From the NCBI GenBank assembly GCA_963708075.1, contig OY970194.1, forward strand, positions 6,592,001-6,656,000: DNA of 64,000 bases, read 5' to 3'. Below the pieces are notes generated by a model that did not search any database, was not told the DNA's origin, and saw only the letters and a list, made by a program, of their open reading frames with translations. Of this stretch, positions 1,160-14,948 are shown in pieces (position 1 is the first letter of the stretch; every line of letters begins with the position of its first letter). A program made the position numbers and the translations under genes. Source of the DNA: Sedimentisphaerales bacterium (GTDB lineage: Bacteria; Planctomycetota; Phycisphaerae; Sedimentisphaerales; Anaerobacaceae).

Positions 1160-2756
1160 ATGGTCTTCACGCTGCAACGATACATATTTCGAGAGCTGTT
1201 CAAAATCTTCCTGTTGGCGACGATCGCGCTGACGCTGATTTTGAGCCTCGGCGGGATCCTGCGGCCGGTTCAGGAGTACGGGGTGGGCCTGCAGCAGGTC
1301 CTGCATATCCTGCTCTACTTCATGCCGATCACGCTGACGTTCGTCCTGCCGATGGCGGCGCTGTTCGCCTCGGCGCTGGCCTACGGCCGCTTCGCCAGCG
1401 ACAACGAGCTGGACGCCTGCCGGGCCAGCGGAATCGGGGTTTCCACGCTCGTGTATCCGGGGCTGACCCTGGCCGTTCTCGTGGCGATCGCGAATCTGCT
1501 GTTGAGTTTTCACGTCATGCCGTACTTCGTCCGGCTCGCCGAGCGGTCGTTGAAGGCGGATGCCAAGCAGATCCTTTTCCGCAACATTCAGCGGCACGGG
1601 TACTACAGCCTGCCGCCCGATGAGCGGTACCTCATCTACGCGGATTATGCCGATGCGAAGACCGATACTCTCTACGGCATCGTCGTGATTGAGTCGTCGC
1701 AGGAGGGGCTCAAGCGGATCATCACCTGTGAGTCCGCCCAGGTATACTTCAACCCCCATGACAGGTTCAACGAGGTCCAGTTGACCGCGCAACACGAGGC
1801 AATTGGGCGGCCTCGACGACATGTGGTTTGAGATCGAGGCGGCGTCGTTCCGGCAGGAGTTCGGTTCGCTCCTGGGCGATGATATCAAATTCAAGAAGAT
1901 CGATGAGATGAAGCAGATCCGCGTCAATCCGCTGCTATTCGATCCCGTGGCGAAGACAGCCCATGAGCTGTATATGCAGCTTGCAGCGGAACTGCTGTCG
2001 CAGGACATACAGGCGAGATTGGCCACGTCTCCTGCCGCCTTCTACGAGCTCGAAGGGAAATCGCAGAGGGTCCGGCTCTCCGCGATGGGATGCGTCCTGG
2101 AGGACGAGCCGGCCGTGTCGCTGCGGCCCCCGGTGACCGTGGAGGAGTATGCAAAGCAGGGCGACAAGCCGCCTCGAAAGTTCCTCAGTGAGAAGGCCAT
2201 CCTCTACCTCGACGACACCACGCCGGACCTGCAGGTCCACCTGCAACTTTCCAGCGCCGAGGTCATCGGGACGGGGCAGTCAGTGATCCATCATGCCGCC
2301 GGCGGCCTCGCCATGCCGGAATCCATCAGGCAGGCTCTCCGCCGGACGCAGGCCGGAGGGTTGAGACTCGGGGGAGATTTGAGTTCTGTGCTGCAAGGTC
2401 CGCCGAGTCCGAAGCTCGCGGGCCTCCAGGCAATATTGGAGCGGCAAATCCGCGGGACGCTGGTCGATATCACGGGCGAGATCCACTCGCGGCTGGTCTT
2501 TGGCGTCGGTTGCATTCCGATGATTCTCATCGGAATTGGCTTGGGAATCCTCAAGCGGGGTGGACACCTGCTCAGCGCATTCGGCGCCAGTTGCGTGCCC
2601 GGCGCCGTATTGATCGTGGCGATCATCAGCGGCAGGCAGGTCGCAGGGAACACCCGTTGGGCCGAGGCCACGCCCGGGATCCTCATCATGTGGGCCGGCC
2701 TGGCGTTCCTGCTGCTTCTGGCCGCCATCATCTACTCCCGGCTCCTGCGACATTAG
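1160..2756 (+). CDS. LptF/LptG family LPS export permease (frameshift at ~1790)
   Basis: [10 protein letters not shown]-terminus, [29 protein letters not shown] motif, three C-terminal TM helices after EIHSRL. ORFs 1109-1831 and 1803-2756 join into one protein. Confidence 0.85.
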
Positions 2757-4069
2757 GTGTCGGCACGCTGTTTGATGGCCTGGCGGACCTCGCGGTTGAT
2801 GCGGGCGCTGCACCAGTGCTGGCCGCACATGGAGCAGTAGTCGGCCGAATGCAGCTCCGATGCGCCCATTTCCTCGCACGCCTCGCGATGCATCCGGTCG
2901 GCGGTCTTCGGGTCGAGGGACTCCCCGAAATGCGTCTGCCAGTCGAGGTTGCTCCGGGCCGTGCTCAGCCTCCTGTCGCGTTCATCCGCGCCCTTGAGGC
3001 CGCGGGCGATATCCGCCGCATGGGCGGCGATCCGGGCGGCGACAACGCCGGCCCGTACGTCCTCGGCGTTCGGCAATCCGAGGTGTTCCCGGGGTGTGAC
3101 GTAGCACAGGAAGGAGGCTCCGTAGAATGCCGCCGCGCAGCCGCCAATGGCGGACGTGATGTGATCGTAGCCGGGTGCGATGTCCGTCACCAGGGGACCG
3201 AGCACGTAGAAGGGGGCCCCGTGGCAGATCTCCTGCTGGAGCTCCATATTGCGCTGAATCTGATTGAACGGCACATGGCCGGGACCTTCCACCATGACCT
3301 GGCAGCCGCGTTCCTGTGCCCTCTGGGTCAGCTCGCCCAGCGTCCGCAACTCGGCGAGCTGCGCCTCGTCGGTGGCGTCGGCGATGGCGCCGGGACGCAG
3401 GCCGTCGCCGAGAGAGAAACACACATCGTATTCGACCATGATGTCGCACAGGTCGTCGAACAGCTCGTACACGGGATTCTGCTTATTGTGATGGAGCATC
3501 CACTTGGCCAGCAGGGCGCCGCCCCGGCTGACGATGCCGGCGACGCGCTTCTCGATCAGCGGCAGGTGCTCCCTCAGCACACCGGCGTGGATCGTAAAGA
3601 AATCGACCCCTTGCTTCGCCTGCTTTTCAATCGTCCGCAGGATGATGTCGTTGTCGATGTCTTCGACGTTCCTGCCCTCGATCACCTGATAGATCGGGAC
3701 GGTGCCGAAGGGGACCGGGCAATGCGCAAGCAGCTCGCTGCGGATTTCGTCAAGATTGCCACCGGTGCTGAGGTCCATCACCGCATCGGCCCCGACCTCC
3801 AGCGCCGCCTCCAGCTTCTCGATCTCGGCGGCCACGGAAGAGCGGACGCTGCTTGTCCCGATATTGGCATTGACCTTCGTCCTGAGCGCTCTGCCGATCC
3901 CCGCCGGCTTGAGATTGGTCTTCAGGTGGAGTCCGTTGGCCGGGATCACCAGCCGTCCCGCCGCCACCTCCGCCCGGATGAGCTCGGCATCCACCGCCTC
4001 GTCCCGCGCCACAGCCTGCATGGCCTGCGTGATCTTTCCGGCTCGAGCGTGCTCCAGTTGCGTCGTCAT
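2753..4069 (-). CDS. thiC: Phosphomethylpyrimidine synthase ThiC (short form)
   Basis: [58 protein letters not shown] and C-terminal CSMCGQHWC Fe-S motif. Upstream TPP riboswitch. Confidence 0.97.
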
Positions 4070-4120: not shown

Positions 4121-4149
4121 TCGCCAACTCTCGATGCCTCGTTTGTCGC

Positions 4150-4277
4150 ATCGCTTTCCTACGCAGGCCTTCTCGCCCCCGCATCCGAGTTTCGGATGCG
4201 ATCCATGGAGCGATTATCCCGATCAGGTTCAAAGGGTTTTGTCTCAGACCCGCCTCACAGCAGGCCACCCCTAGCGA
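4150..4277 (-). ncRNA. TPP riboswitch (THI box) with 44-nt insertion in L5
   Basis: Minus strand TCGCT-AGGGGTG...CTGAGA...ACCCTTTGAACCTGATCGGGATAAT[44 nt]GCCTGCGTAGGAA-AGCGA. P1 TCGCT/AGCGA, P5 CGGG/CCTG. Lies directly upstream of thiC. Confidence 0.92.
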
Positions 4278-4285
4278 CCAAATCC

Positions 4286-4313
4286 ATTATACCGGACCGG
4301 CGGTACCGTTCAA
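4286..4313 (-). promoter_or_regulatory. Sigma70-type promoter for riboswitch-thiC
   Basis: Minus strand TTGAAC-16 nt-TATAAT; the predicted start site falls at the 5' end of P1. Confidence 0.65.
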
Positions 4314-4339
4314 GCAATTCTTCCCGATCTGAACGCCAT

Positions 4340-4533
4340 GTGTGCGACTACATTTTGTGGGGAAGGAGGCTCATTCTGTCATCCCGAGCCCATTCGACTA
4401 CGCTCAGGGCAGGCTGCGCGAGGGATCTGGCCGAGATTGCACGGTGCGCCTTTGCGATGCCAGATGTCTCGGCTACGCTGCGCTTCGCTCGACATGACAA
4501 ACGGGGGCTTCACCACGAAAATTAGTCGCACAC
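4340..4533. mobile_element. MITE-like element, copy A (194 bp), 8-bp TSD AACGCCAT
   Basis: TIRs GTGTGCGACTACATTTTGTGGGGAAG / CTTCACCACGAAAATTAGTCGCACAC (22/26 match). AACGCCAT at 4332-4339 and 4534-4541. Confidence 0.9.
4377..4499. repeat. TGTC/CGTC-type REP doublet with a nested second palindromic element (~4390-4415)
   Basis: TGTCATCCCGAGC...GCGAGGGATCTGGC and inverted partner GCCAGATGTCTCG...GCTCGACATGACA. Left arm is interrupted by CCATTCGACTACGCTCAGGGCAGGCT. Confidence 0.75.
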
Positions 4534-4577
4534 AACGCCATGTGCAGGAGCGTGCAGGAGAAACCTGAGCTTTCCAT

Positions 4578-4606
4578 TTGATCTCTCCGGAGCTTCGGGC
4601 TACAAT
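4578..4606 (+). promoter_or_regulatory. Putative sigma70 promoter of the TIR-CHAT gene
   Basis: TTGATC-17 nt-TACAAT; GGAGG RBS at 4686-4690 before ATG 4701. Confidence 0.5.
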
Positions 4607-4700
4607 AAGGTCGATAGAAGCGGCGTGCGGCACGGGTGAGACAGTGCCGGCGAGTTTCCATCTGTTATTGCGGGCCAGATGTCTTGGAGGTCATGGAAGA

Positions 4701-7700
4701 ATGCGCGACGGTCGCAACGCCGCTGTGTTCATCAGTCATGCCAGCGCCGACGATGAATTCGTAAAGCAATTGCGAGAATCGCTCGAAGCCCACCATATAC
4801 CCGTTTGGGTGGACTCCCGCGGCCTGCGGGGCGGCAGCAAGCTCGCGCCGGAGATCGCGCAGGCCATCGGCAACGCCCGACACTTCATCGCTGTGCTCGG
4901 CCCAGAAACCGTGAACTCACGATGGGTTCGCCGGGAGATCGAGCGGGGGCTATTGGTCGAAAAGCGGCGCAAAGCCGACGGCTATCGCGTCATTCCGCTC
5001 CTGCTCCCCGGCCTTGAGCCCGCCGCCCTGGAAGCCTGGTTCGATGAGGAGCCGACAGGCATTTCAGTTGGGACCGGCCCGGACGGCCTTTCCGCGGCCA
5101 TGCCTGACATCCTCGCTGCTCTGGGGGAACGCCTGCCCACCGGCAGCCAAATGGCTGCCCAGGCCGATGGCAAGCCGCTGGCGGAGCTCGTCCTCACGCT
5201 CGCGGACGCGAAGATCGAGACTCAGGAAGGCAAAAGGCGTGCCAGTGCCGTCGCTATGCTCACCTATGAGCCGGCTGACTCCGCTGTCAAGGGCATCGAG
5301 AGCCGCCGCTTCGCGTTCACCGCGCCGCTCGGGCCCATTGAGGCCGACGACCTGCGATGGTACCTGGAGCAGTATTTCCTCTGGCCGGTCGGCGTGTTCG
5401 AGAACCCGCGCTAAGGGCATTGAGAAGAAGTTGCCGCAATGGGGTAACGATCTCTTCCAAGCTGTGCTGGGCATCGACACCGCTCGCGAGGCGTTCTCCG
5501 CCTGGCAACATGCCGCCGACGGTGCCGAACGGCGCTTCTCAGTGCAGGTGAACAGTGATCTGCCCGACGGCGCGCCCGCCGAAGCCCAAGCCGCCGCGCG
5601 TGAGGCGGCGACTGAGCTTCTCTCCCTTCCGTGGGAGCTTCTGCACGATGGTCACGACTGGCTCTTCCAGGGAGCGCATCCTGCTCGGGTTCGCCGTCGT
5701 CTGCCAAGCCGTCAGGAACAGAAGGCACGTCCTGCAACCCTGCCCATCCGCATCCTGCTCGTCAGCCCGCGTCCGGAGCATGATGGCAAAGGCAACGACA
5801 TCGGTTATATCGACCACCGTATCAGCGCCCGGCCGCTGGTCGATGCGGTGGAAAGCCTCGGCGAGTTGGCGAAGCTCACGATTCTCACGCCGCCCACCTA
5901 CGCTGCACTGGATGAGGCCCTGCAGGCCGCCGCCGACCGCAATGAGCCGTTCGATGTCGTCCACTTCGACGGCCACGGAGTCTATGACCGTCACCTTGGC
6001 TTGGGCGGATTGTGCTTTGAAGATGCCAAAGACGCCGGCTTGCCGGAAAAGCGTCAGATGGAGTTCGTCGACGCTGTCAAACTGGGCGGTCTGTTCCGTC
6101 AACACCGCGTCCCGTTGGTGTTCCTGGAGGCCTGCCAGACGGCGGTGGCCGAGGTGGACCCGACGACCTCCGTGGCCGCGAGGCTGCTTGAAGAAGGTGT
6201 CACGTCCGTCGTGGCAATGAGCCACAGCGTGCTGGTCGAGACGGCCAGACGATTCGTGCAGGCATTCTATAAGTCATTGGCACAAGGTGCCCGCGTGGGC
6301 AAGGCCATGCTCGCCGGCCAGCGAGCGCTCTTCGATGACACCTGGCGCGGCAAGATCATGGGCGCGGGCGACCTGCGATTGCAGGACTGGTTTGTGCCCG
6401 TCGTCTACCAGGAGAAGCACGACCCGCAACTCATCACGAGAACTCCGGCAAGGGAGGTGCGCCAGCTCGAAGCCAGGAGGCGAAGGCTCAGCCTCGGCGC
6501 GCTGCCGGAAGAGCCGCCACACAGGTTCCAGGGGCGCAGCCATGAGCTGCTCGCCCTCGAACGGCTCCTGCACGACGAGCCCTGGGCCGTCGTGCGTGGT
6601 ACCGGTGGCTCGGGCAAGACTACGCTTGCCGCCGAGTTGGCCCGCTGGCTCACTCGCACAGGACGCTTTGCGCGGGCCGCCTTCGTGAGCCTCGAACACC
6701 ACCGCGACGCGCGTGCCGTGCTCGACACCCTCGGCCATCAACTCCTGCCCGACGGCGACAAATACTCTGTAGCCCAGTTCCCGAGCTTTGACAAAGCCCT
6801 TCAACCCGTAGAGCGGGCACTGGCGGACCACGCCACCATTATCGTCCTGGACAACTGCGAGAGCATCCTGGATGCAGGCGACGCCCTCACGGCGTTGCTC
6901 GACCTGTGCAAGCGGCTCCTCGACGCGGACCCAAGGATCCGCCTCGTCTTCACCATGCGTGAGCCGCTGCCCGCACCGTTCGACCACGCAGGCCGCCAGC
7001 GGGAACTGGGCGACTTGGCCCGCCCCGACGCCATCGAGCTGGTGGGCAAGGTAATGAAACAGAACGGTTGGACGCCGCCCGCCACCGACCCGGGCGGCAC
7101 GCCGCAGGAGATCACCGACTTGGTGGAGGCGGTGCACTGCCATGCCCGCGCCCTGGTGCTCCTGGCGGGCGAGGTGGCCCGTCGTGGCGTGAAGGCCACC
7201 ACCGCCAATCTCCGCGCTCTCATGGCCGAGTTGGAGCGCAAACACCCTGGCGACCGCGAAAACTCACTCTACGCCAGCGTCGAACTCTCCCTCCGTCGCC
7301 TCTCCCCCGAATCGCGCCAGCACGTTAAGGTGCTCGGCGTCTGCCAGGGTGGAGCATGTCTTCCCATTCTCGCGCACCTCACAGGCTTGGAAGTAGACGC
7401 TGCTCGCCAACTGGCCATTGAACTGATCGACGTCGGCTTAGCCGAAGACATGGGCTATGCCCACCTGCGCCTGGACCCCGGCCTGCCGCCATATCTGCTA
7501 GGCGAGTTGACTGGTGACGAAGCTATCGCCACACGCGCCAAGTGGGCCGAGGCCATGGCCCAACTCACCGTCTACCTCTACGAGGAGCAGTTCAAAGATG
7601 CCCAACTCGCCGCGCAACTGACGCTGCTGGAGTTGCCTAACCTCCTTGCGATGCTGGAGTGGGTTTCGGCCTCCGACTGGCCGGCGGAAAGCGTCGTAGG

Positions 7701-9069
7701 TCTGGCCGACAGCGTGGAAAGGCTAGTCGCCAACCTAGGCCAGCCCCAAGCTCTGGCCGTGGCCACGCGCGTGCGCGAACAAGCCGCTCGGAAACTGGGC
7801 GACTGGAGCCACGCCCGTTTCCTGACCGGGTCTTCCAACATTGACCGGCTGCTGGAACGCGGCGACCTGCCGGCCGCGCACGAGTGCGCCCAGCAACTCC
7901 TCGCAAAGTGCCGTGCCGCCGGTGAGGCTGCCTATCCTGAAGCGGCTTACGATCTCGCATCGGCATTTATCCGGCTCGGGCGAGCGTTAGGGTATAGTGG
8001 AGCGGCTGAAGCCGCATTGGAGCCGCTGGCGGAAGCACAGCGCCGATTCCAGCAACTGGCAAATGCCGGCGATGCTGACGCCGAGCAGGTGGCCTCGGCT
8101 GCCATCACCGAGACTGGCGACTGCCTGCGCAACTTGGGCCGGTTGGATGAAGCCGCCGCCGCATATGAAAAGGCTATCGAGCTCGACCAAGCAGGCAATC
8201 GCATGAGGGATGTTGCTGCTGGTAAGGGTCAACTTGGCACCGTGCGGATGTTGCAGAAACGCTACGCTGAGGCGCTCAAGGCTCACGCCGAAGCACGCGA
8301 CACCTTCGAAGCATTGGGGGAACCGCAAAATGTGGGCGCAATGTGGCACCAGATCGGGATGGTACATGAGAGCACTCACCGATTGGAGCTCGCTGAGCAG
8401 GCCTATCGCCAAGGTTTAGCCATTTTTGTGCGAGAGAACGATGCCCCACACCAAGGTATGAGTCTTGGCCAACTGGGCAGTCTCTACGACGCGATGGGCC
8501 GGTTGGAGGAAGCGGTCACGTTCTATCGGCAGGCCATTGGCGTTCGTGCGCGGCTGAAAGACCTTGCTGGCGAAGGGAGAACCCGCAGCAACTTGGCTGA
8601 CACGCTGACCAAGTTGCTGCGCTACGACGAGGCCCGGCAGGAACTCCAACGGGCGATTGAGTGCAAGAAACCTTACGGCCACGCCGCCGAACCGTGGAAG
8701 GCATGGTCACATCTCGAAGACCTCGAGCGCGCCACCAACCACGGTGAAGCCGCTGCTGCGGCCCGGGAACAGGCGATCCAGACCTATCTGGCCTATCGTC
8801 GCGCCGGCGGCGTTAGCCAGAGCTCTCGCGCCCGACTCTTCGACCTCGTCTCCCAAGCGATCAAGGAGAACGCTCCTGCGGAGGCCCGCCAACTTCTGTC
8901 CCAGCTTGCTTCGCGTCCCGACTTACCTCACTTCGCGAAAGCGTTGATCGCGGAACTCCAGTCGGTGCTCGTCGGCGAACGCGATCCTGCCCTTGCCGCT
9001 GACCCCGAACTCACTCCAAGGGACGCTGCTGAACTTCAACTGCTCCTGGAGAAGCTGCCGCTTGGGTGA
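4701..9069 (+). CDS. TIR-CHAT(caspase-like)-STAND NTPase-TPR protein, ~1455 aa when joined (extra base at ~5400)
   Basis: TIR: VFISHASADD...SRWVRRE. CHAT dyad: VVHFDGHG and FLEACQT. Walker A GTGGSGKTT, Walker B IIVLDNCE. C-terminal TPRs (GRLDEAAAAYEKAI, GRLEEAVTFYRQAI). ORFs 4578-5414 and 5014-9069 join at ...WPVGVF/RTRAKG. Confidence 0.88.
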
Positions 9070-9084
9070 TCCGACGATTTTGTC

Positions 9085-11094
9085 TCACAGGATGCCGTTG
9101 ACGCTGGTGAAGAGGGTTTCGAATCTTTCGAAGGCTTCGTCGGCGCCGGGCAGTTTCTGGATTTTTCTGTGGTTGCTGCGGAACAGGAATTCGGCCGGGA
9201 TCATCGGGTCGAAGTTGACGGGTTTCACCTGGCCGGTGGCGAAGGCACTGTGCACGATCTTCAGGACAGGCTCGTCGGTGACGGCGGCCACCGTGCGCGA
9301 CAGCCTGTGCCTGCGAGGCAATCCAAAGGATTGGTCCGTCAGTGCCAGGTACATTCGCGGGCCGATCAGGTCCTCGACCGTGCTCGTGGCCGGTTCGGCG
9401 TACTTGTGCAGCGGGAAGACGTGGCACCGTTCGAGCATGCGGGAGACCTCTCGATGCTCGGTGATCTCCGGGCGAACCTCGGAAAGACTCAGCAGCACGG
9501 CAAAGCCCGAAGCGTCGTTGGCCAGCAGACCCGCCAGGGTCGCCAGCCGGACGAGATCGCCGCACGGGACGATGGTCCAGGCCGGGTGCAGACCGGTCCT
9601 GCCTCGCTCGTTCAGGCGCGCGGAGAACCACTGGAGGTACAGCACATCCGCGGGCTTTTCCACCAGCAGCAGTTTCTTCGCCGCCGTCAGGTCCTGCATG
9701 ATCCGATATCCCAGCGACGCCTGAAGCGGCAGCAGGGTGTCATGGTCCATGCTGAGGACTTCATCGCCCACCTTTGTGCCCAGATACTCCAGCCTGCCGT
9801 CCGGCGTCTGCCGAGTCACCTCCTCAACTGTGCGAACCCACTGCATCCTCTCCGGATCGATCATGAACGGAGAGTGCGTCGCGTAAAGCACCTGGTACTG
9901 AGAGACCAGTCGCTCGCGGATGTATCGAAGCAGGTCCCACTGCGCCTTGGCGTGCAGGCCGAGCCCGGGATCATCCAGGAGGATGATGAGGTTGTCGCCG
10001 TAACGCCTGCGGACGCCGGCGTACCAGACCAGGAAGGAGAAGAACCAGACGAACCCGGTGCTGCGCTCCGAAAAGTTGAGGGACAGATCGGTTCTCGTAT
10101 TGACGATGCGGGTCTCGAAGACCAGCCCGCGGTCCATGGGCGACGGATCGCCCGGGCGGGCGGGGTAGAGATGGAAGCTGACCCTCAGGTCCCGCTCCTG
10201 ACTCCAGTACTTGGCGATCTCGACGGTGATGGGCCGGGCGGCGTCTTCCAGGTCCGCGATGAGCTCCTCCGACCGCTCGATACTGGTCAGTGCCTCCACC
10301 GAGGTGCCCCCGAGTTCCAGCAGCGCGAGGAAGACCCGGTCCGGGCCCGTGAGGTCGCCCTTCTTTCGTCTCTCCAGCAGCGCATCGATCGAGATGCGTC
10401 CATCCATAATGTGCCATTCGGAGAAGTACAGGAGCTTGGGCAGCAGCGCTCCCACGTGCTGCTCAAAGCATGCATTGTCGGCAGGAACAGGGTCGGCAGG
10501 CGGCGTCGGCATTGTCCGCGACGGGCTCTCGATGGAGCTTCGCTCCTCCTCGACTTCCGGCGTCTCCGTCTCCTTGGCAACATCCTGGATCTGTCTCAGA
10601 CTCCTCACAGCCTCCTCCAACATCCGAGAGCGATCGTCCAGATCGTCCGCGGTCTGCGCCGGCTGCGGGTCATGCGGCACATTCATCGATCGGCTGACGG
10701 ATGCGTTCATCGCTGTGAGCGAGCCGGTCCATCGGCGCCCGGGATAGTACCCTTTCTCTACGACTATGGTGCGGGATTTGACCGCGCCGGGGCCGAGGAT
10801 GCTCTCCAGCTTCTCGACATCCTTGTCCTCCAGCTCCCACGTGGTGATCAGGGCATCATCCGGCTCGCGATTGGGCTGCTTCTGATACTCGCGGCGGCGG
10901 GCCCGCGGATACTCCATCAGGACGTCGAAATTGGCCAGTTCATCGACATCCGGATTCAGCTTATAGAGTGCTTCCAGAAGCGAGGTCTTGCCGGCGCCGT
11001 TCTTGCCGACAAAGGCCGTTACCGGGCTGACGCTGAATTCCGTGGAATCCTCGATACAACGAAAGTTCTTGACTTGCATCCGTCGCAGCTTCAT
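9085..11094 (-). CDS. OLD-family-like ABC/AAA ATPase with degenerate TOPRIM region
   Basis: MKLRRMQVKNFRCIED, Walker A GKNGAGKTS, signature-like ERSTGFVWFFSF, Walker B LLDDP, H-loop ATHSPF, TOPRIM-like LLVEKPAD. Confidence 0.8.
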   Translation of the reverse strand: MKLRRMQVKNFRCIEDSTEFSVSPVTAFVGKNGAGKTSLLEALYKLNPDVDELANFDVLMEYPRARRREYQKQPNREPDDALITTWELEDKDVEKLESILGPGAVKSRTIVVEKGYYPGRRWTGSLTAMNASVSRSMNVPHDPQPAQTADDLDDRSRMLEEAVRSLRQIQDVAKETETPEVEEERSSIESPSRTMPTPPADPVPADNACFEQHVGALLPKLLYFSEWHIMDGRISIDALLERRKKGDLTGPDRVFLALLELGGTSVEALTSIERSEELIADLEDAARPITVEIAKYWSQERDLRVSFHLYPARPGDPSPMDRGLVFETRIVNTRTDLSLNFSERSTGFVWFFSFLVWYAGVRRRYGDNLIILLDDPGLGLHAKAQWDLLRYIRERLVSQYQVLYATHSPFMIDPERMQWVRTVEEVTRQTPDGRLEYLGTKVGDEVLSMDHDTLLPLQASLGYRIMQDLTAAKKLLLVEKPADVLYLQWFSARLNERGRTGLHPAWTIVPCGDLVRLATLAGLLANDASGFAVLLSLSEVRPEITEHREVSRMLERCHVFPLHKYAEPATSTVEDLIGPRMYLALTDQSFGLPRRHRLSRTVAAVTDEPVLKIVHSAFATGQVKPVNFDPMIPAEFLFRSNHRKIQKLPGADEAFERFETLFTSVNGIL

Positions 11095-11286
11095 GACTGC
11101 ATTCCTCCACTGAGGTGTATATTCGCCTTTCGCCCCAGCCGACTTGCCAATCGTTCGCTATCCTAACAGGGGCTTCCGCATCCGTCAAATGCATGTCATT
11201 CATATTTTACTCTATAGCGCCCGGATGACGGTGAAATCCGGGTGGCGAATGGGATGAAGTCAGCCGGTGATCGACGAACGCGGCGC

Positions 11287-12345
11287 CTACTGACCCTCGA
11301 ACGAGTGCTGATCGGCCACGTTCAGCCCGGCCAACTCGGCCATGGCTTCCCATGTCAGGGCCGGACTATCGCTCTCTTTGTGATCGGCTGTCATATGCGT
11401 GGGGATACACAGCACTTCCATTTCCATGCCCGCGGGGCTCTCGATGTCCGCGCCGTCGGCCGGGAGGCACGTGAGATAGAAAGTAGTATCGTGGGTCGTG
11501 CCTTGCGGATCTTTGTGTGTCAGTCTTACGGCCAGCTCATCGTCCTGCTCGACGATCTCGACCTGTGCCGGCTCACCTGGCCCCGTATCGCTCATCTTTT
11601 CGAGCCATTCGCCGAGCGACAGACCCAGGAGAGTGATCTGTCCATCGAGCTCTCTCGCCAGTTGCCGGTTTCGGAATTCCTCAAGCTCGTCCGATTCGCT
11701 CTGCTTGTCTTGAAACGGCGGCAGGGGTGCGATTCCGGGCAGGCCGGACTGCGTCTTGACCAGCACCGCGCCGTCCCGGAAAACGACGCAGATGTGCGAG
11801 TCGTCCGGATTGGCCCAAACGTACACCTGGTTCGCCGCCCCATCAAAATAGGAACTGCTGAGCTGTTCGCCCTGCGCGCCGAGAAGGTCGGCCACTTGGC
11901 GATAGGTCATGCCTTTTTGAATCTGAGTGTACATGGAGCTCGTGAAGGTCAGGTCCGCGGCAGGAGGCGTCTGAGGGGCTTCGGCCTCCTGCGACGCCGT
12001 GGTATCGACAGCGTTCGCGTCAGGCGCGGGCACGTCGTCAGGGGATTGGCCGGCGGGTTGGACCGGCGGCTTCAGCCTGGTAAACGTGTACGCAATATCC
12101 TGACCCGAGACTCGGACTTCAATGCTGCTTTGTATGCCGTTCAGCAGCAGGGCGAATCCTTCGTAGGTTCCATCCGCCCTTTCCATCAGCATCACGGACC
12201 GGCAGCAGTCGTACATGCGCTCATTGATGTGAGCTTTGACGCGCTCCTGCAACTCGGTTCTGCTGATGCCTTGTGCACAGGATGTATTGGCTCCGAGCCA
12301 GCCAACCAACGCTAACGCCATTGCGGTATACATGGGTCTACGCAT
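11287..12345 (-). CDS. Secreted protein with DUF3862/BLIP-like (SmpA/BamE-like) domain
   Basis: Signal peptide; YTQIQKGMTYRQVADLLG...VYVWAN...VVFRDGAVLVKTQSGL. Confidence 0.6.
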   Translation of the reverse strand: MRRPMYTAMALALVGWLGANTSCAQGISRTELQERVKAHINERMYDCCRSVMLMERADGTYEGFALLLNGIQSSIEVRVSGQDIAYTFTRLKPPVQPAGQSPDDVPAPDANAVDTTASQEAEAPQTPPAADLTFTSSMYTQIQKGMTYRQVADLLGAQGEQLSSSYFDGAANQVYVWANPDDSHICVVFRDGAVLVKTQSGLPGIAPLPPFQDKQSESDELEEFRNRQLARELDGQITLLGLSLGEWLEKMSDTGPGEPAQVEIVEQDDELAVRLTHKDPQGTTHDTTFYLTCLPADGADIESPAGMEMEVLCIPTHMTADHKESDSPALTWEAMAELAGLNVADQHSFEGQ

Positions 12346-12504
12346 AGCACGTCATCCTATAACAAGTGAAATCATCCTGTCAGTTGCTGAATGGACCCCA
12401 TTATACCATCGGCCGACCTGTTCTTGTCTCGCAAGTGCATCGCTGGTATAGTGGCGCTATATTCCTCGTTCTTGTAGGCCGCAAATGCAAAGGAGGTTCA
12501 GATC

Positions 12505-13452
12505 ATGGGCAACGAGTACAGCATATCCCGGCGGAGTTTCTTGAAAACGTCAGTGGTCGGTGCAGTGGTCGCAGCAACAGTCGGCAGGAATTCCGCGATG
12601 GCTGCACAAGGCGGCACATTGCGGCTGGGCGGGCCGGTCTTTGAGAAGGTCCAGGACTCGCAGGGCTGGGTCGACGCGGTCAAGAAACTGGGCTATTCCG
12701 CCGCGTATTGCCCCGTTGGACCTGATGCCGGCGACGACGTGGTCCGGGCCTACGAGGAGGCCGCGGCTAAGGCGGGCATCATCATTGCCGAAGTCGGGGC
12801 GTGGAGCAATCCGATCAGCCCGGATGAGCCGACACGCAAGGCTGCTCTGGAGAAATGCCGCACGAGCTTGGCCCTGGCCGACCGTATCGGGGCCCGCTGC
12901 TGCGTCAATATCGCAGGCACCCGCAGCACGCAGTGGGATGGTCCCGATGCCGCCAATTTCACGCAGGGAACGTTCGATATGATTGTCGAAACGACGCGGT
13001 CGATCATCGATGCTGTCAAGCCGACGCGGACGTATTTCACCCTGGAGATGATGCCCTGGGCCTATCCCGACTCGCCGGACTCGTACGTGCAATTGCTCAA
13101 GGCAATCGACCGCAAGCAGTTCGCCGTGCACCTCGACCCCGTGAACCTCGTGTGCAGCCCGCAGCGATACTACGGCAACGGCCGGCTCATCCGCGAGTGT
13201 TTTGAGAAGCTCGGCCCTTACATCCGGAGCTGCCACGCAAAAGACATCCTCCTGCATCCGAAGCTCACAACGCATCTCGACGAGGCGCTGCCGGGCACAG
13301 GCGGTCTGGACTATGCCACATTTCTCAAGGAGCTGAACAAACTGCCCGGCACGCCTTTGATGCTGGAACACCTGTCCAAGGCCGAGGACTACGTCCAGGC
13401 CGCCGACTACATCCGACGTGTCGCGAAACAACTGGAGTTGTCATTCGCCTGA
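12505..13452 (+). CDS. Tat-exported sugar phosphate isomerase/epimerase (xylose isomerase-like TIM barrel)
   Basis: SRRSFLK signal; LEMMP, HLDPVN, CHAKD and MLEH metal-binding motifs. Confidence 0.85.
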   Translation: MGNEYSISRRSFLKTSVVGAVVAATVGRNSAMAAQGGTLRLGGPVFEKVQDSQGWVDAVKKLGYSAAYCPVGPDAGDDVVRAYEEAAAKAGIIIAEVGAWSNPISPDEPTRKAALEKCRTSLALADRIGARCCVNIAGTRSTQWDGPDAANFTQGTFDMIVETTRSIIDAVKPTRTYFTLEMMPWAYPDSPDSYVQLLKAIDRKQFAVHLDPVNLVCSPQRYYGNGRLIRECFEKLGPYIRSCHAKDILLHPKLTTHLDEALPGTGGLDYATFLKELNKLPGTPLMLEHLSKAEDYVQAADYIRRVAKQLELSFA

Positions 13453-13475
13453 TGGCCACCCCGGGTCAGCGGCGC

Positions 13476-13671
13476 GGGTGCGACTACATTTCGTGGGCCC
13501 CGATGGCTTCGCAGGGCGGGCGAGGACGCCCACCCTGCGCCCGGAGCCGTCGGCGCTCTTCGTAGGTCGTGCGTCCCCGCACGACTCTTTTGGCATTGAG
13601 TGGATACAGGTCGAAACGCACGGTTTCTCACCCGGCCGGCAGAATCTCCCCCACGAAATTTAGTCGCACAC
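13476..13671. mobile_element. MITE-like element, copy B (196 bp), 8-bp TSD AGCGGCGC
   Basis: TIRs GGGTGCGACTACATTTCGTGGG / CCCACGAAATTTAGTCGCACAC (20/22). AGCGGCGC at 13468-13475 and 13672-13679. Same ends as the 4340-4533 element. Confidence 0.9.
13511..13585. repeat. Two GTAG-type REP hairpins inside MITE copy B
   Basis: GCAGGGCGGGCGAGGACGCCCACCCTGC (13511-13538) and GTAGGTCGTGCGTCCCCGCACGAC (13562-13585). Confidence 0.7.
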
Positions 13672-13678
13672 AGCGGCG

Positions 13679-13760
13679 CCGGGCGCCATGTCTACGCTGC
13701 GTAGACATGTCCGACCAGATGCCCATAGCATGCTTACGCGAGCGTAAGCATGGCGCCCGG
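13679..13760. repeat. REPIN-like doublet, GGG(C/T)GCCATG family, copy 1
   Basis: CCGGGCGCCATG...CATGGCGCCCGG with internal hairpins CATGTCTACGC-T-GCGTAGACATG and CATGCTTACGC-GA-GCGTAAGCATG; abuts the dinB stop. Confidence 0.85.
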
Positions 13761-13761
13761 A

Positions 13762-14948
13762 TCAGGCAGTGCCGGGGTTCTCGTGGGTCGATCCGCCGCG
13801 GTGGGCGGCGTGCTTGCCGTAACGGTCGCGGATCTTGTCCACGACCTGGTCGAGGCGCTTGAGCTTCTCCTGTTCGGGGTCGCGAAAGAGCAGTTGCTGG
13901 CCGGCCTGCTCCGGCGTCAGGCCGGATACGCCGAAGCCAAGCAGACGCAGCGGACCGCCGGAGCGGGCGTGCCATTGGCGAAAGACGTGCTCCGCCGTTG
14001 CCCACAGGGTCTTGGTGACGTTTGTCGCCTCGCTCAAGGTATCGCTGCGCGTCACCGTGCGGAAGTCGCCATACCGCAGCTTCAGTGTGACCGTCCGAGC
14101 CTTGAGTCTCTCCTGGCGCAGCGCTGCGCGACCTCCTCCACCTGTTCAAGCAGCACGGCCAGCAGTATCGCCGCATCGCTGATGTCCGTCGCGAACGTCT
14201 GTTCGCTCGACAGGCTCTTGCACTGGCGGTCCGGCTCGACGTCCCTGTCGTCCTCGCCCCGGGCCAGCCGCTGCAGGTCGTCGGCTCCGTTGCCGACGAT
14301 CCTCTGGAGTTCCTCCAGGCTGCTTTGGCGAAGTTGGCCGATCGTGTGAATGCCGTGTGATTTCAGGGCCTTCTCCGTAACCTGGCCGACGCCCCAGATC
14401 TTGCCGACCGCAAGCGGATCGAGAATCTGCTGCTTGTTCTGTTCCGTAATCACCACGAAGCCATCGGGTTTCTTCAGGTCCGACGCCAGCTTGGCGAGGA
14501 ACTTGTTCGGCGCGATCCCGACCGAGGCGGTCAGATGCGTCTGCTCGAGGATTTCCTTTTTGATGGCTCGGCCGATTGTCTCTGTGCTGCCGAAGAGATC
14601 GGTGCTGTCGGTGACGTCGAGAAAGGCCTCATCGAGCGAGATCGGCTCCACGAGGGGCGTGTACTTCTCGAAGATCGCGCGGATGATATGCGAGACCTCC
14701 GCGTACCGGTCCATCCGGACGGGCAGCAGGACGGCATGGGGACAACATCGGATCGCCTGGGCCGTCGGCATGGCGCTGTGGACACCGAACTTGCGGGCCT
14801 CGTAGGACGCGGCGCTGACCACGCCCCGGCTGCGCGCGTCGCCGCCCACGATGACGGCTTTGCCCTTGAGCTCCGGGTGGTCGTGCTGCTCCACCGAAGC
14901 GTAAAACGCGTCCATATCGACGTGAATGATCTCACGGGCCTTGCTCAT
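13762..14948 (-). CDS. dinB: DNA polymerase IV (frameshift at ~14120)
   Basis: IIHVDMDAFYASVEQ, SAASYEARKFGVHSAM, SLDEAFLD, NKFLAKLASD. Little-finger domain TVTLKLRYGDF...LRLLGFGVS continues in the shifted frame. Confidence 0.95.

Follow-up and report, generated by a model that had tools for sequence, protein, structure and literature searches.

Two elements with common ends

Two short elements in the window, the whole stretch of 64,000 nucleotides analysed here, raise the question of how the same transposon-like ends come to enclose unrelated repeats. In the explanation we consider probable, A and B are gene-less mini-transposons, in which ISKra4-like ends of 21 bp surround REP doublets, and which are moved in trans, placed at promoters and subject to exchange of their cargo (Table 1).

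Table 1. Coordinates of elements A and B and of neighbouring features, in positions of the window
Feature	Position	Strand	Remarks
thiC	2753..4069	-	Pfam PF01964
TPP riboswitch	4139..4282	-	Rfam RF00059
Predicted sigma70-type thiC promoter	4286..4313	-	-35 box begins 26 nt from end of A; conserved in relatives
TSD of A, left copy	4332..4339	.	AACGCCAT
MITE A, 194 bp	4340..4533	+	Divergent member of the TGTC-doublet class
Terminal repeat of A, IRR type (IS right end, C)	4340..4360	+	Towards thiC promoter
TGTC-ended REP doublet, cargo of A	4377..4499	.	Arms 4377-4389 and 4487-4499
Small module inserted in left arm of A	4393..4413	+	13 genomic copies, 9 outside shell 1
Terminal repeat of A, IRL type (IS left end, A)	4513..4533	-	
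TSD of A, right copy	4534..4541	.	AACGCCAT
TSD of B, left copy	13468..13475	.	AGCGGCGC
MITE B, 196 bp	13476..13671	+	Between convergent genes
Terminal repeat of B, IRR type	13476..13496	+	
GTAG-type REP hairpin 1 of B	13514..13538	-	Tag mutated in this copy
GTAG-type REP hairpin 2 of B	13562..13585	+	72 genomic copies, 36 within MITE shells
Terminal repeat of B, IRL type	13651..13671	-	
TSD of B, right copy	13672..13679	.	AGCGGCGC
Free GGCGCC-type repeat doublet, another family	13679..13760	.	Abuts B, outside MITE

Both elements, proposed in a first-pass annotation of the window, are real: they have common ends, and each is flanked by its own exact 8-bp duplication. Their inverted-repeat ends extend over 27 nt at 85% identity in A and 20 nt at 95% in B, and a contig from run X2 covers A and both flanks with zero differences. 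Being short, non-coding and bounded by 21-bp terminal inverted repeats, they are MITEs; at gathering scores, Rfam has no family for either. The asymmetry described for position 12 of the ends, C on the left and A on the right, is present in both and is that between the right and left end of the cognate insertion sequence (see below). Their interiors are unrelated, as had been claimed, with zero blastn matches at word size 7 and E 0.01, and the two cargo types were also named correctly: a TGTC-ended doublet in A, free and decayed relatives of which occur at other places in the genome, and GTAG-type hairpins in B, arranged back-to-back. B is one of six full copies of 195-196 bp, every one of them with an exact 8-bp duplication.

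The cognate insertion sequence

A full-length element with these ends and a transposase, which the first-pass annotation had wished to see, exists outside the window. It is an IS of 1534 bp, present elsewhere in the genome in six copies with 0-2 differences, which has the same ends and the same asymmetry and is flanked in five of six cases by an exact 8-bp duplication in register. Its transposase is best matched by the ISKra4 family (NF033572, E 2e-50), followed by ISLre2 (92 bits). Since the score for NF033572, at 172 bits with the long frame and 174 on reading through the slip site, lies under the curated NCBIfam cut-off of 205, we call the IS ISKra4-like only. Seventeen metagenome relatives, at 68-86% identity, have the same ends.

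Transposases of p-MULT elements carry a DDE triad plus a C/DxxH motif. D173, D265 and E381, as well as D287/H290, are invariant in 14 aligned transposase frames, and from this conservation we infer that they are catalytic. Further, the IS falls within the definition of p-MULT elements given in the parts of PMC3942029 covered here, namely inverted repeats of 18-39 bp, a terminal C and a duplication of 8-9 bp. The transposase is encoded in two frames, whose joining needs a +1 (or -2) shift at a T5C5 run, unlike in the ISMich2 group, which uses a -1 frameshift.

In the MITEs, almost no IS sequence is left beyond the 21-bp ends. With a cognate IS in the genome and many copies, the sequences support the earlier proposal of a non-autonomous, DDE-mobilised shell with differing REP families; the Mutator-type DDE transposase of the IS would likely move A and B in trans, possibly via a circular form such as has been described as the intermediate of Mutator-like IS.

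Copies, relatives and sister shells

A search with an end profile, at a threshold of at least 14 bits, yielded 74 sites in the genome, compared to 8 after block shuffling. A second search, blind to sequence, looked for inverted ends with exact 8-bp duplications and yielded 115 matches, while 3 Mb of shuffled DNA gave 4. As both lie far above their shuffled controls, the end sites are not due to chance. The check for further copies thus found many, both in the genome and in its relatives. The genome contains 18 short elements with the ends of A and B (shell 1), of which 10 have exact 8-bp duplications and 12 duplications with at most one mismatch. Shell 1 is present in 19 of 23 relatives, and 14 genomes of the genus contain 70 duplication-flanked elements of 98-252 bp, with several unrelated REP doublet families inside. 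Three sister shells enclose REP doublets too. For shells 3 and 4, a cognate transposase was looked for in this genome and next to 28 shell-3 sites of the genus, and none was found; the two long shell-3 elements contain nested, unrelated IS-like genes.

The tight length constraint suggested by the near-equal sizes of A and B is not supported by this range, in which 52 of the 70 elements measure 169-200 bp. The classes of 171-176 and 194-200 bp are set apart largely by a single inserted module, about 24 bp long. In 30 clusters, the lengths showed no helical phasing (10.5 bp, p about 0.29), and a 12-bp period (p about 0.008) was also rejected, being due to related TGTC clusters that lie one module apart. 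End signatures do not follow the genome rather than the cargo (0.829 against 0.828).

In runs X1-X5, a clean empty site, which would have only one copy of the duplication, was not found. One contig of run X2 omits B along with the neighbouring repeat, and the site of B is empty in two relatives, G018 and G023. There are also 27 solo ends, of which 10 keep the fixed distance to a promoter described below; one-ended transposition was rejected as their origin, given that no consistent duplication was seen at a surrogate end among the 27.

Placement upstream of promoters

Upstream of predicted promoters, the elements keep a fixed distance; this was missed in the first-pass annotation, as was the same behaviour of the sister shells. 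Scoring promoters by a simple consensus match, and in a window of 24-28 nt outside the element that was picked after viewing the flanks in this genome, we found a promoter-like site at 15 of 23 insertions here (11/17 MITEs and 4/6 IS copies), compared to 0-2 of 23 in other 5-nt windows and 38 of 2000 random positions. The same window has such a site at 39 of 51 MITEs of relatives and at 5 of 11 metagenome IS. The end towards the promoter is the IRR in 13/15 and 35/41 cases. B, five more of the 17 MITEs and two of the six IS copies are without a promoter-like site at this distance.

At G000:6527867-6528710, three different shells are stacked and share one duplicated 8-mer; stacking at one target also accounts for abutted ends 7-9 bp apart. 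The orthologous thiC promoter in G005 has a different shell at 26 nt, and an intact shell-1 end occurs in 0 of 20 orthologous thiC upstream regions. Targeting to REPs was rejected, since a REP or shell end lies within 60 bp outside in 5 of 24 insertions, compared to 12% of gap positions. We suggest that placement, which most often puts the end some 26 nt upstream of a predicted sigma70 promoter, could come about through contact of the transposase with promoter-bound RNA polymerase, by analogy to the model for TnGBS, and that shells would stack because all of them aim at the same spot.

Origin and probable exchange of the cargo

The cargo has a GTAG or CGTC/TGTC tag at the hairpin foot, is organized in doublets and has many extragenic copies, as REPs do, and homology between cargo and free copies ends at the REP borders. 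One cargo class is found in different shells, and unrelated cargos are found in one shell. For three motifs in this genome for which no working RAYT was found, the shell-borne share is high (17/25, 36/72, 44/71), compared to 5/116, 0/37 and 0/85 for motifs flanking an intact RAYT or GIY-YIG gene; exceptions to this pattern are GGCGCC (15/269), which is without a known enzyme, and GGGTGGCA (145/656), which has one. Five RAYT genes score above the cut-off in the genome. The GGGTGGCA cargo, found in relatives and in sister shells, flanks two intact RAYT genes; the B-type hairpins adjoin a truncated one at G000:5410072, with no intact RAYT beside them. No cognate RAYT for the TGTC type of A was found among 20 RAYT and 2 GIY-YIG matches, for 18 of which the flanks were examined. 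A possible TIR-bound element carrying a RAYT was rejected, as a RAYT-type element interrupts the MITE to which the end at G000:4636723 belongs, and this end has no partner.

Interiors that align once the REPs are removed would have spoken for later insertion of REPs into an ordinary MITE. In 1437 pairs, the spacers of different cargo classes gave no convincing alignment, in line with the first-pass annotation; the best cross-class pair of REP-bearing spacers (z 6.2) is isolated, and the idea that A and B derive from the same empty shell was rejected. Only REP-free elements of 70 and 98 bp match subterminal DNA of the IS. Because the spacers lack convincing homology to each other and to this DNA, they do not demonstrate that the classes share an empty ancestor.

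Intermediate forms are seen. Sister shell 2 has forms of 49, 56, 60, 93-103, 139-149 and 274-311 bp around one shared spacer, and the 49- and 56-bp forms, with microhomologies at their junctions, resemble products of hairpin deletion more than ancestral forms. A half-TGTC, half-GTAG hybrid exists in two copies, each with its own duplication, and at one locus (L045) the end of shell 3 sits immediately within that of shell 1 (score 52, compared to 30 for the best of 1570 shuffles). A derivation of the spacer of B from shell 3 was rejected, its score of 28 being below the best shuffle (30). The only pair with two cargos at the same site (L065/L080) may be an assembly consensus mixing two alleles.

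These forms bear on the claim that the shell captures or swaps REPs: it does carry different REP families, but the intermediates fit REP invasion with deletion or recombination better than capture by the shell. Cargo probably changes, we infer, through REP invasion and deletion among stacked elements and not through a dedicated capture enzyme. REP doublets would insert into, or overwrite, hairpin-rich stacked elements; most products would lose one end and become solo ends, and those keeping both ends could be amplified again and give rise to a new family.

Active capture resembling that of Pack-MULEs, in which repair of a transposition intermediate copies an ectopic REP doublet with its flanks, once per class, would agree with the Mutator-like transposase, with the loss of nearly all IS sequence inside the 21-bp ends and with each cargo class having its own spacers, free of cross-class homology. 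We consider it unlikely, since a donor locus with matching flanks was not found and the 62-bp spacer of B occurs in B-type copies only. Moreover, the cargo is nearly always a REP and not random intergenic or coding DNA (47/47, 10/11 and 6/8 in sister shells), and the hybrids, nested ends and REP-truncated copies indicate editing after insertion. It is more improbable still that the hairpins are native to old MITE families, with the free copies as decay products and no independent REP cargo. Such an origin fits the location of one TGTC arm, 17 of whose 25 copies are within shell 1, and the decayed ends beside some seemingly free copies, yet it is already largely contradicted by a family that flanks two intact RAYT genes and has 511 of 656 motif copies outside any shell, by the truncated RAYT next to hairpins of the B type, and by the sharing of cargo between shells and the unrelated cargos within one.

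The position upstream of promoters might also reflect selection and not targeting, if the host maintained the hairpin cassettes to insulate or tune its promoters. Both elements have strong predicted folding (z -5.2 and -5.4), and shell 1 persists in G008, G013 and G018, where the transposase was not found with this query. However, the sites are not conserved, as seen for the thiC regions and for B, the full IS keeps the same fixed distance to promoters, and the sharp offset is what targeting predicts; we thus give host regulation the least credence. Our preferred reading therefore remains that of trans-mobilised, promoter-placed elements with exchanged cargo. As the elements share IS ends and enclose several unrelated REPs, REP hairpins likely spread by means other than the enzyme to which their dispersal is commonly attributed.

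Comparison with known systems

Promoter targeting is already known for IS of the ISKra4 group (Guerillot et al. 2014, PMC3942029). The parts of that paper covered here place ISKra4 in p-MULT 4 and ISLre2 and TnGBS in p-MULT 3, and describe for the ISKra4 group a fixed-distance insertion upstream of sigma-A promoters, as we find it for the present elements. The offset differs (here 26 nt measured from the end, or 18 measured from the duplication; there 15-17), as does the orientation: our elements are strongly oriented, like those of p-MULT 3, whereas the ISKra4 elements of PMC3942029 insert both ways. MITEs have 0 occurrences in its main text and REP cargo is not described in the parts covered. 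In Porphyromonas gingivalis, according to the passages seen of PMC4596501, BrickBuilt and MITEPgRS resemble our elements in that near-identical TIRs, taken from a resident IS, enclose different interiors, of which one is a repeat (for a review of bacterial MITEs, see PMC3184786). They differ in their IS5-family ends and minisatellite core, and REP doublets and promoter targeting are absent from these passages.

With GTAG-type and TGTC-type doublets, the cargos are those of the REP/REPIN literature. In the sections covered, this treats REPINs and MITEs as separate classes (PMC3733652, PMC6006769, PMC8266576, bioRxiv 2021.07.10.451892), describes CGTC/TGTC repeats as apparently without a dedicated transposase (PMC3733652) and calls REP spread poorly understood (PMC8266576). 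In contrast to the doublets in these sections, those found here are enclosed in elements that have TIRs and 8-bp duplications, and they lie upstream of promoters rather than at gene 3' ends. The known link, as given in the parts covered of PMC3184786, is the reverse one, with IS inserting into REPs (IS1397, IS621). Our literature search, whose scope left out most subscription papers, yielded no account of REP doublets in TIR/TSD-bounded MITEs in titles, abstract openings or the passages covered.

The elements offer a second route for REP spread that is concrete and testable, with enzyme and substrates in one genome, and extend promoter-homing from ISKra4- and ISLre2-type IS to elements of 100-250 bp with unrelated interiors. 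They provide a minimal substrate on which to study how promoters are found by a transposase, and possibly a means to insert short DNA upstream of promoters while leaving genes unbroken. Many promoters in the genus have thereby gained an upstream hairpin cassette, which may change read-through or local DNA topology. More tentatively, promoter-homing Mutator-type shells could be a main vehicle for REPs without a working RAYT, with a doublet allowing a very short shell to unite its ends; if so, REP spread would have a second, general engine in DDE transposases, which would drop hairpins just upstream of promoters genome-wide.

The Pack-MULEs of plants consist of non-autonomous Mutator-type ends around foreign DNA. 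A bacterial case of these was not found in the literature search. A and B share with them the non-autonomous Mutator-type ends and differ in their cargo, which consists of non-coding repeats about 60-210 bp long. Rather than the undescribed system proposed in the first-pass annotation, they are a variant of known element types.

Shell-1 elements in the genome and the genus

The first-pass annotation had described A and B as MITEs with common ends and unrelated REP cargo. Both were recovered as described, each within its own exact 8-bp duplication; the common ends measure 21-22 bp, and the interiors are indeed unrelated, with no mutual blastn match. Exact matches to these ends, which we call shell 1, were almost confined to Planctomycetota (43 of 44 such matches in titled records of the genome collection, mostly Phycisphaerae).

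The genome holding the window contains 18 short paired elements with shell-1 ends, 10 of them with exact duplications. The TGTC type, to which A belongs, accounts for eleven (172-200 bp) and the B type for six (195-196 bp, each exactly duplicated at its flanks); the last is a REP-free form of 70 bp. A further 27 ends stand alone, and 20 of these solo ends are of IRR type; 22 of the 27 have a REP-like motif at most 80 bp inward, compared with 6.5% of random positions, using a motif list made after viewing the solo ends. Shell-1 ends were found in 19 of 23 genus relatives (reversed-pattern controls 0-2). Among 85 elements fetched from chosen sites, mainly close end pairs, 70 from 14 genomes have a duplication with no more than two mismatches, and in 39 of these it is exact. 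They span 98-252 bp, with 52 at 169-200 bp, in a set biased by this choice of sites to lengths below about 250 bp.

The interiors form unrelated classes. Doublets are of TGTC (three variants), GTAG (arranged in several ways) or GGGTGGCA type; the remaining classes are another GTAG type, a hybrid of TGTC and GTAG, and forms that lack REPs. A 133-bp GTAG-doublet family has duplications at 13 of 15 further sites in one relative (G023). Similarity of the cargo to free copies ends at the REP borders. The phenomenon is real and genus-wide.

Coordinates of elements, genes and sites (window, or contig C1 of the window's genome, G000)
Feature	Window	G000:C1	Remarks
Element A	4340-4533
Element B	13476-13671
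Outward promoter-like site of A	4494-4522		9/12 matches
Frames downstream of A	4702-9069		CHAT/STAND/TPR frame of 1351 codons
Convergent-gene gap around B	13452-13796		orthologues L182-L169
Example IS copy, frame shift		861342-862875	= L001:1043-2576
~155-bp MITEs, examples		502180-502334, 6295491-6295645
Shell-3 elements, examples		492895-493222, 3047590-3047988
GIY-YIG gene		3460471-3460695
Truncated RAYT-like genes		5409980-5411950	opposite strands

Cognate insertion sequence

The same ends bound an IS of 1534 bp, present in six genome copies with 0-2 differences; five have an exact in-register 8-bp duplication, and the sixth is shifted by one base. The asymmetry between the ends of A and B, noted earlier at TIR position 12, corresponds to the right (C) and left (A) ends of this IS. 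Seventeen metagenome relatives at 68-86% identity share the ends.

The IS has frames of 85 and 430 codons that overlap and are joined where a T5C5 run requires a shift of +1 (or -2). Of the related loci, 12 of 14 have this run, as do 51 of 80 from metagenomes; the shift at this conserved run is possibly transcriptional slippage. The transposase matches ISKra4 best (NF033572, 172-174 bits, below the cut-off of 205; ISLre2 92 bits), and the IS is here called ISKra4-like, without being classed as an ISKra4 member. Residues D173, D265, E381 and D287/H290 are invariant, which we take to be the Mutator-type catalytic set.

Sister shells

A second ISKra4-like IS measures 1516 bp, and its end family and two further ones behave like shell 1. 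In these three sister shells, REP-type motifs occur in 6/8, 47/47 and 10/11 short elements with duplications; the corresponding rate is 5% for random windows and 14% for those placed in gaps between long frames. Shells and cargo mix freely, shell 3 holding A-type cargo in G074 and other genomes. Shell 3 is the largest MITE family in G000; about 40 of its elements (322-473 bp) carry a third kind of repeated hairpin, and no cognate transposase was found in this genome. REP doublets likewise lie between the ends of two additional families, and two other short families lack them.

MITEs about 155 bp long, of two end families outside the sister shells, carry GGGTGGCA-type doublets; no cognate IS was found for them in G000, and one family repeatedly duplicates a near-palindromic 8-mer belonging to another repeat.

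Insertion upstream of promoters

A sigma70-like promoter whose -35 box starts 24-28 nt beyond one end (mode 26) accompanies 11 of the 17 MITEs and four of the six IS copies in this genome, on whose flanks this range was chosen after inspection, and 39 of 51 MITEs in relatives, a separate but related set. The offset recurs in 5 of 11 metagenome IS and in 5/8, 27/50 and 9/11 sister-shell elements; controls gave 0-2 of 23 in other 5-nt ranges and 38 of 2000 at random positions. The end facing the promoter is IRR in 13 of 15 cases here and 35 of 41 in relatives. Stacks of different shells split by one 8-mer reflect repeated use of one target.

The thiC promoter and its TPP riboswitch have element A 26 nt upstream of them. 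An intact shell-1 end is absent from all 20 orthologous thiC regions, two of which come from a single genome; in G005, however, a shell-4 end occupies the 26-nt position, and in G006 a different end lies at 34 nt, behind an 8-mer that is doubled. Convergent genes flank B, which has no promoter at 24-28 nt; G018 and G023 have an empty site here and also lack the neighbouring repeat. This gap is a turnover hot spot; several relatives have a different REP family there.

The right REP arm and IRL of A form a weak outward promoter-like site, whose spacing differs in other family members. Downstream of A lie an N-terminal stretch resembling a TIR domain (by eye) and a CHAT/STAND/TPR frame; the two frames may be one gene, since contigs from two sequencing runs (X2, X4) lack one base at 5403.

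Proposed mobilisation and exchange of cargo

Judging from element anatomy and PMC3942029, the MITEs would be mobilised in trans, with polymerase guiding target choice.

Indirect evidence suggests that cargo is exchanged through editing after insertion: TGTC arms with a ~24-bp module inserted once or twice, a mobile hybrid element, shell ends cut off by other repeats, a shell-2 size series around one spacer, a shell-1 end with a shell-3 end nested in it, and the left half of a B-type element that continues into REPs belonging to a truncated RAYT gene. Counting against certainty, no spacer homology was found across cargo classes, IS DNA beyond the ends is nearly absent from the MITEs, and short shell-2 forms resemble deletions. 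The lone same-site swap (L065/L080, within a 3.3-kb stretch that is ~99% identical) may be a mixed consensus. Nearly all amplified families hold REP doublets, perhaps through ready supply, or because they aid in bending a short element.

Elsewhere in the genome, a small GIY-YIG gene is bracketed by two TGTC-type repeats in inverted orientation, of a kind with 85 copies in the genome. The arrangement resembles a REPtron but lacks a RAYT, and our literature search found no description of it. Two truncated RAYT-like genes each have their own GTAG repeats, and the frame between them is HNH-like.

Comparison with known systems

In PMC3942029, the ISMich2 group has a -1 frameshift, whereas our IS and its relatives need +1 (or -2); the ends of ISKra4-group elements in its Table S1 resemble those of the 1534-bp IS. 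Promoter-upstream insertion is known there for p-MULT 3 and ISKra4-group IS, yet at 15-17 bp, a figure that may or may not count the duplication, as against our mode of 26 nt. Of the other sources, PMC4596501 has MITEs sharing ends around different cores, PMC11578231 and PMC3542288 describe ordinary MITEs, and in PMC3184786 the REP-IS link runs in reverse, the IS inserting into the REP. We found no literature description combining shared-end MITEs, promoter targeting and REP cargo; of the supplements, this covers Table S1 of PMC3942029, and others could bear on it. Shared-end MITEs with different cores are known, and so is promoter targeting; here both occur together with REP cargo, a combination that bears testably on how REPs spread.
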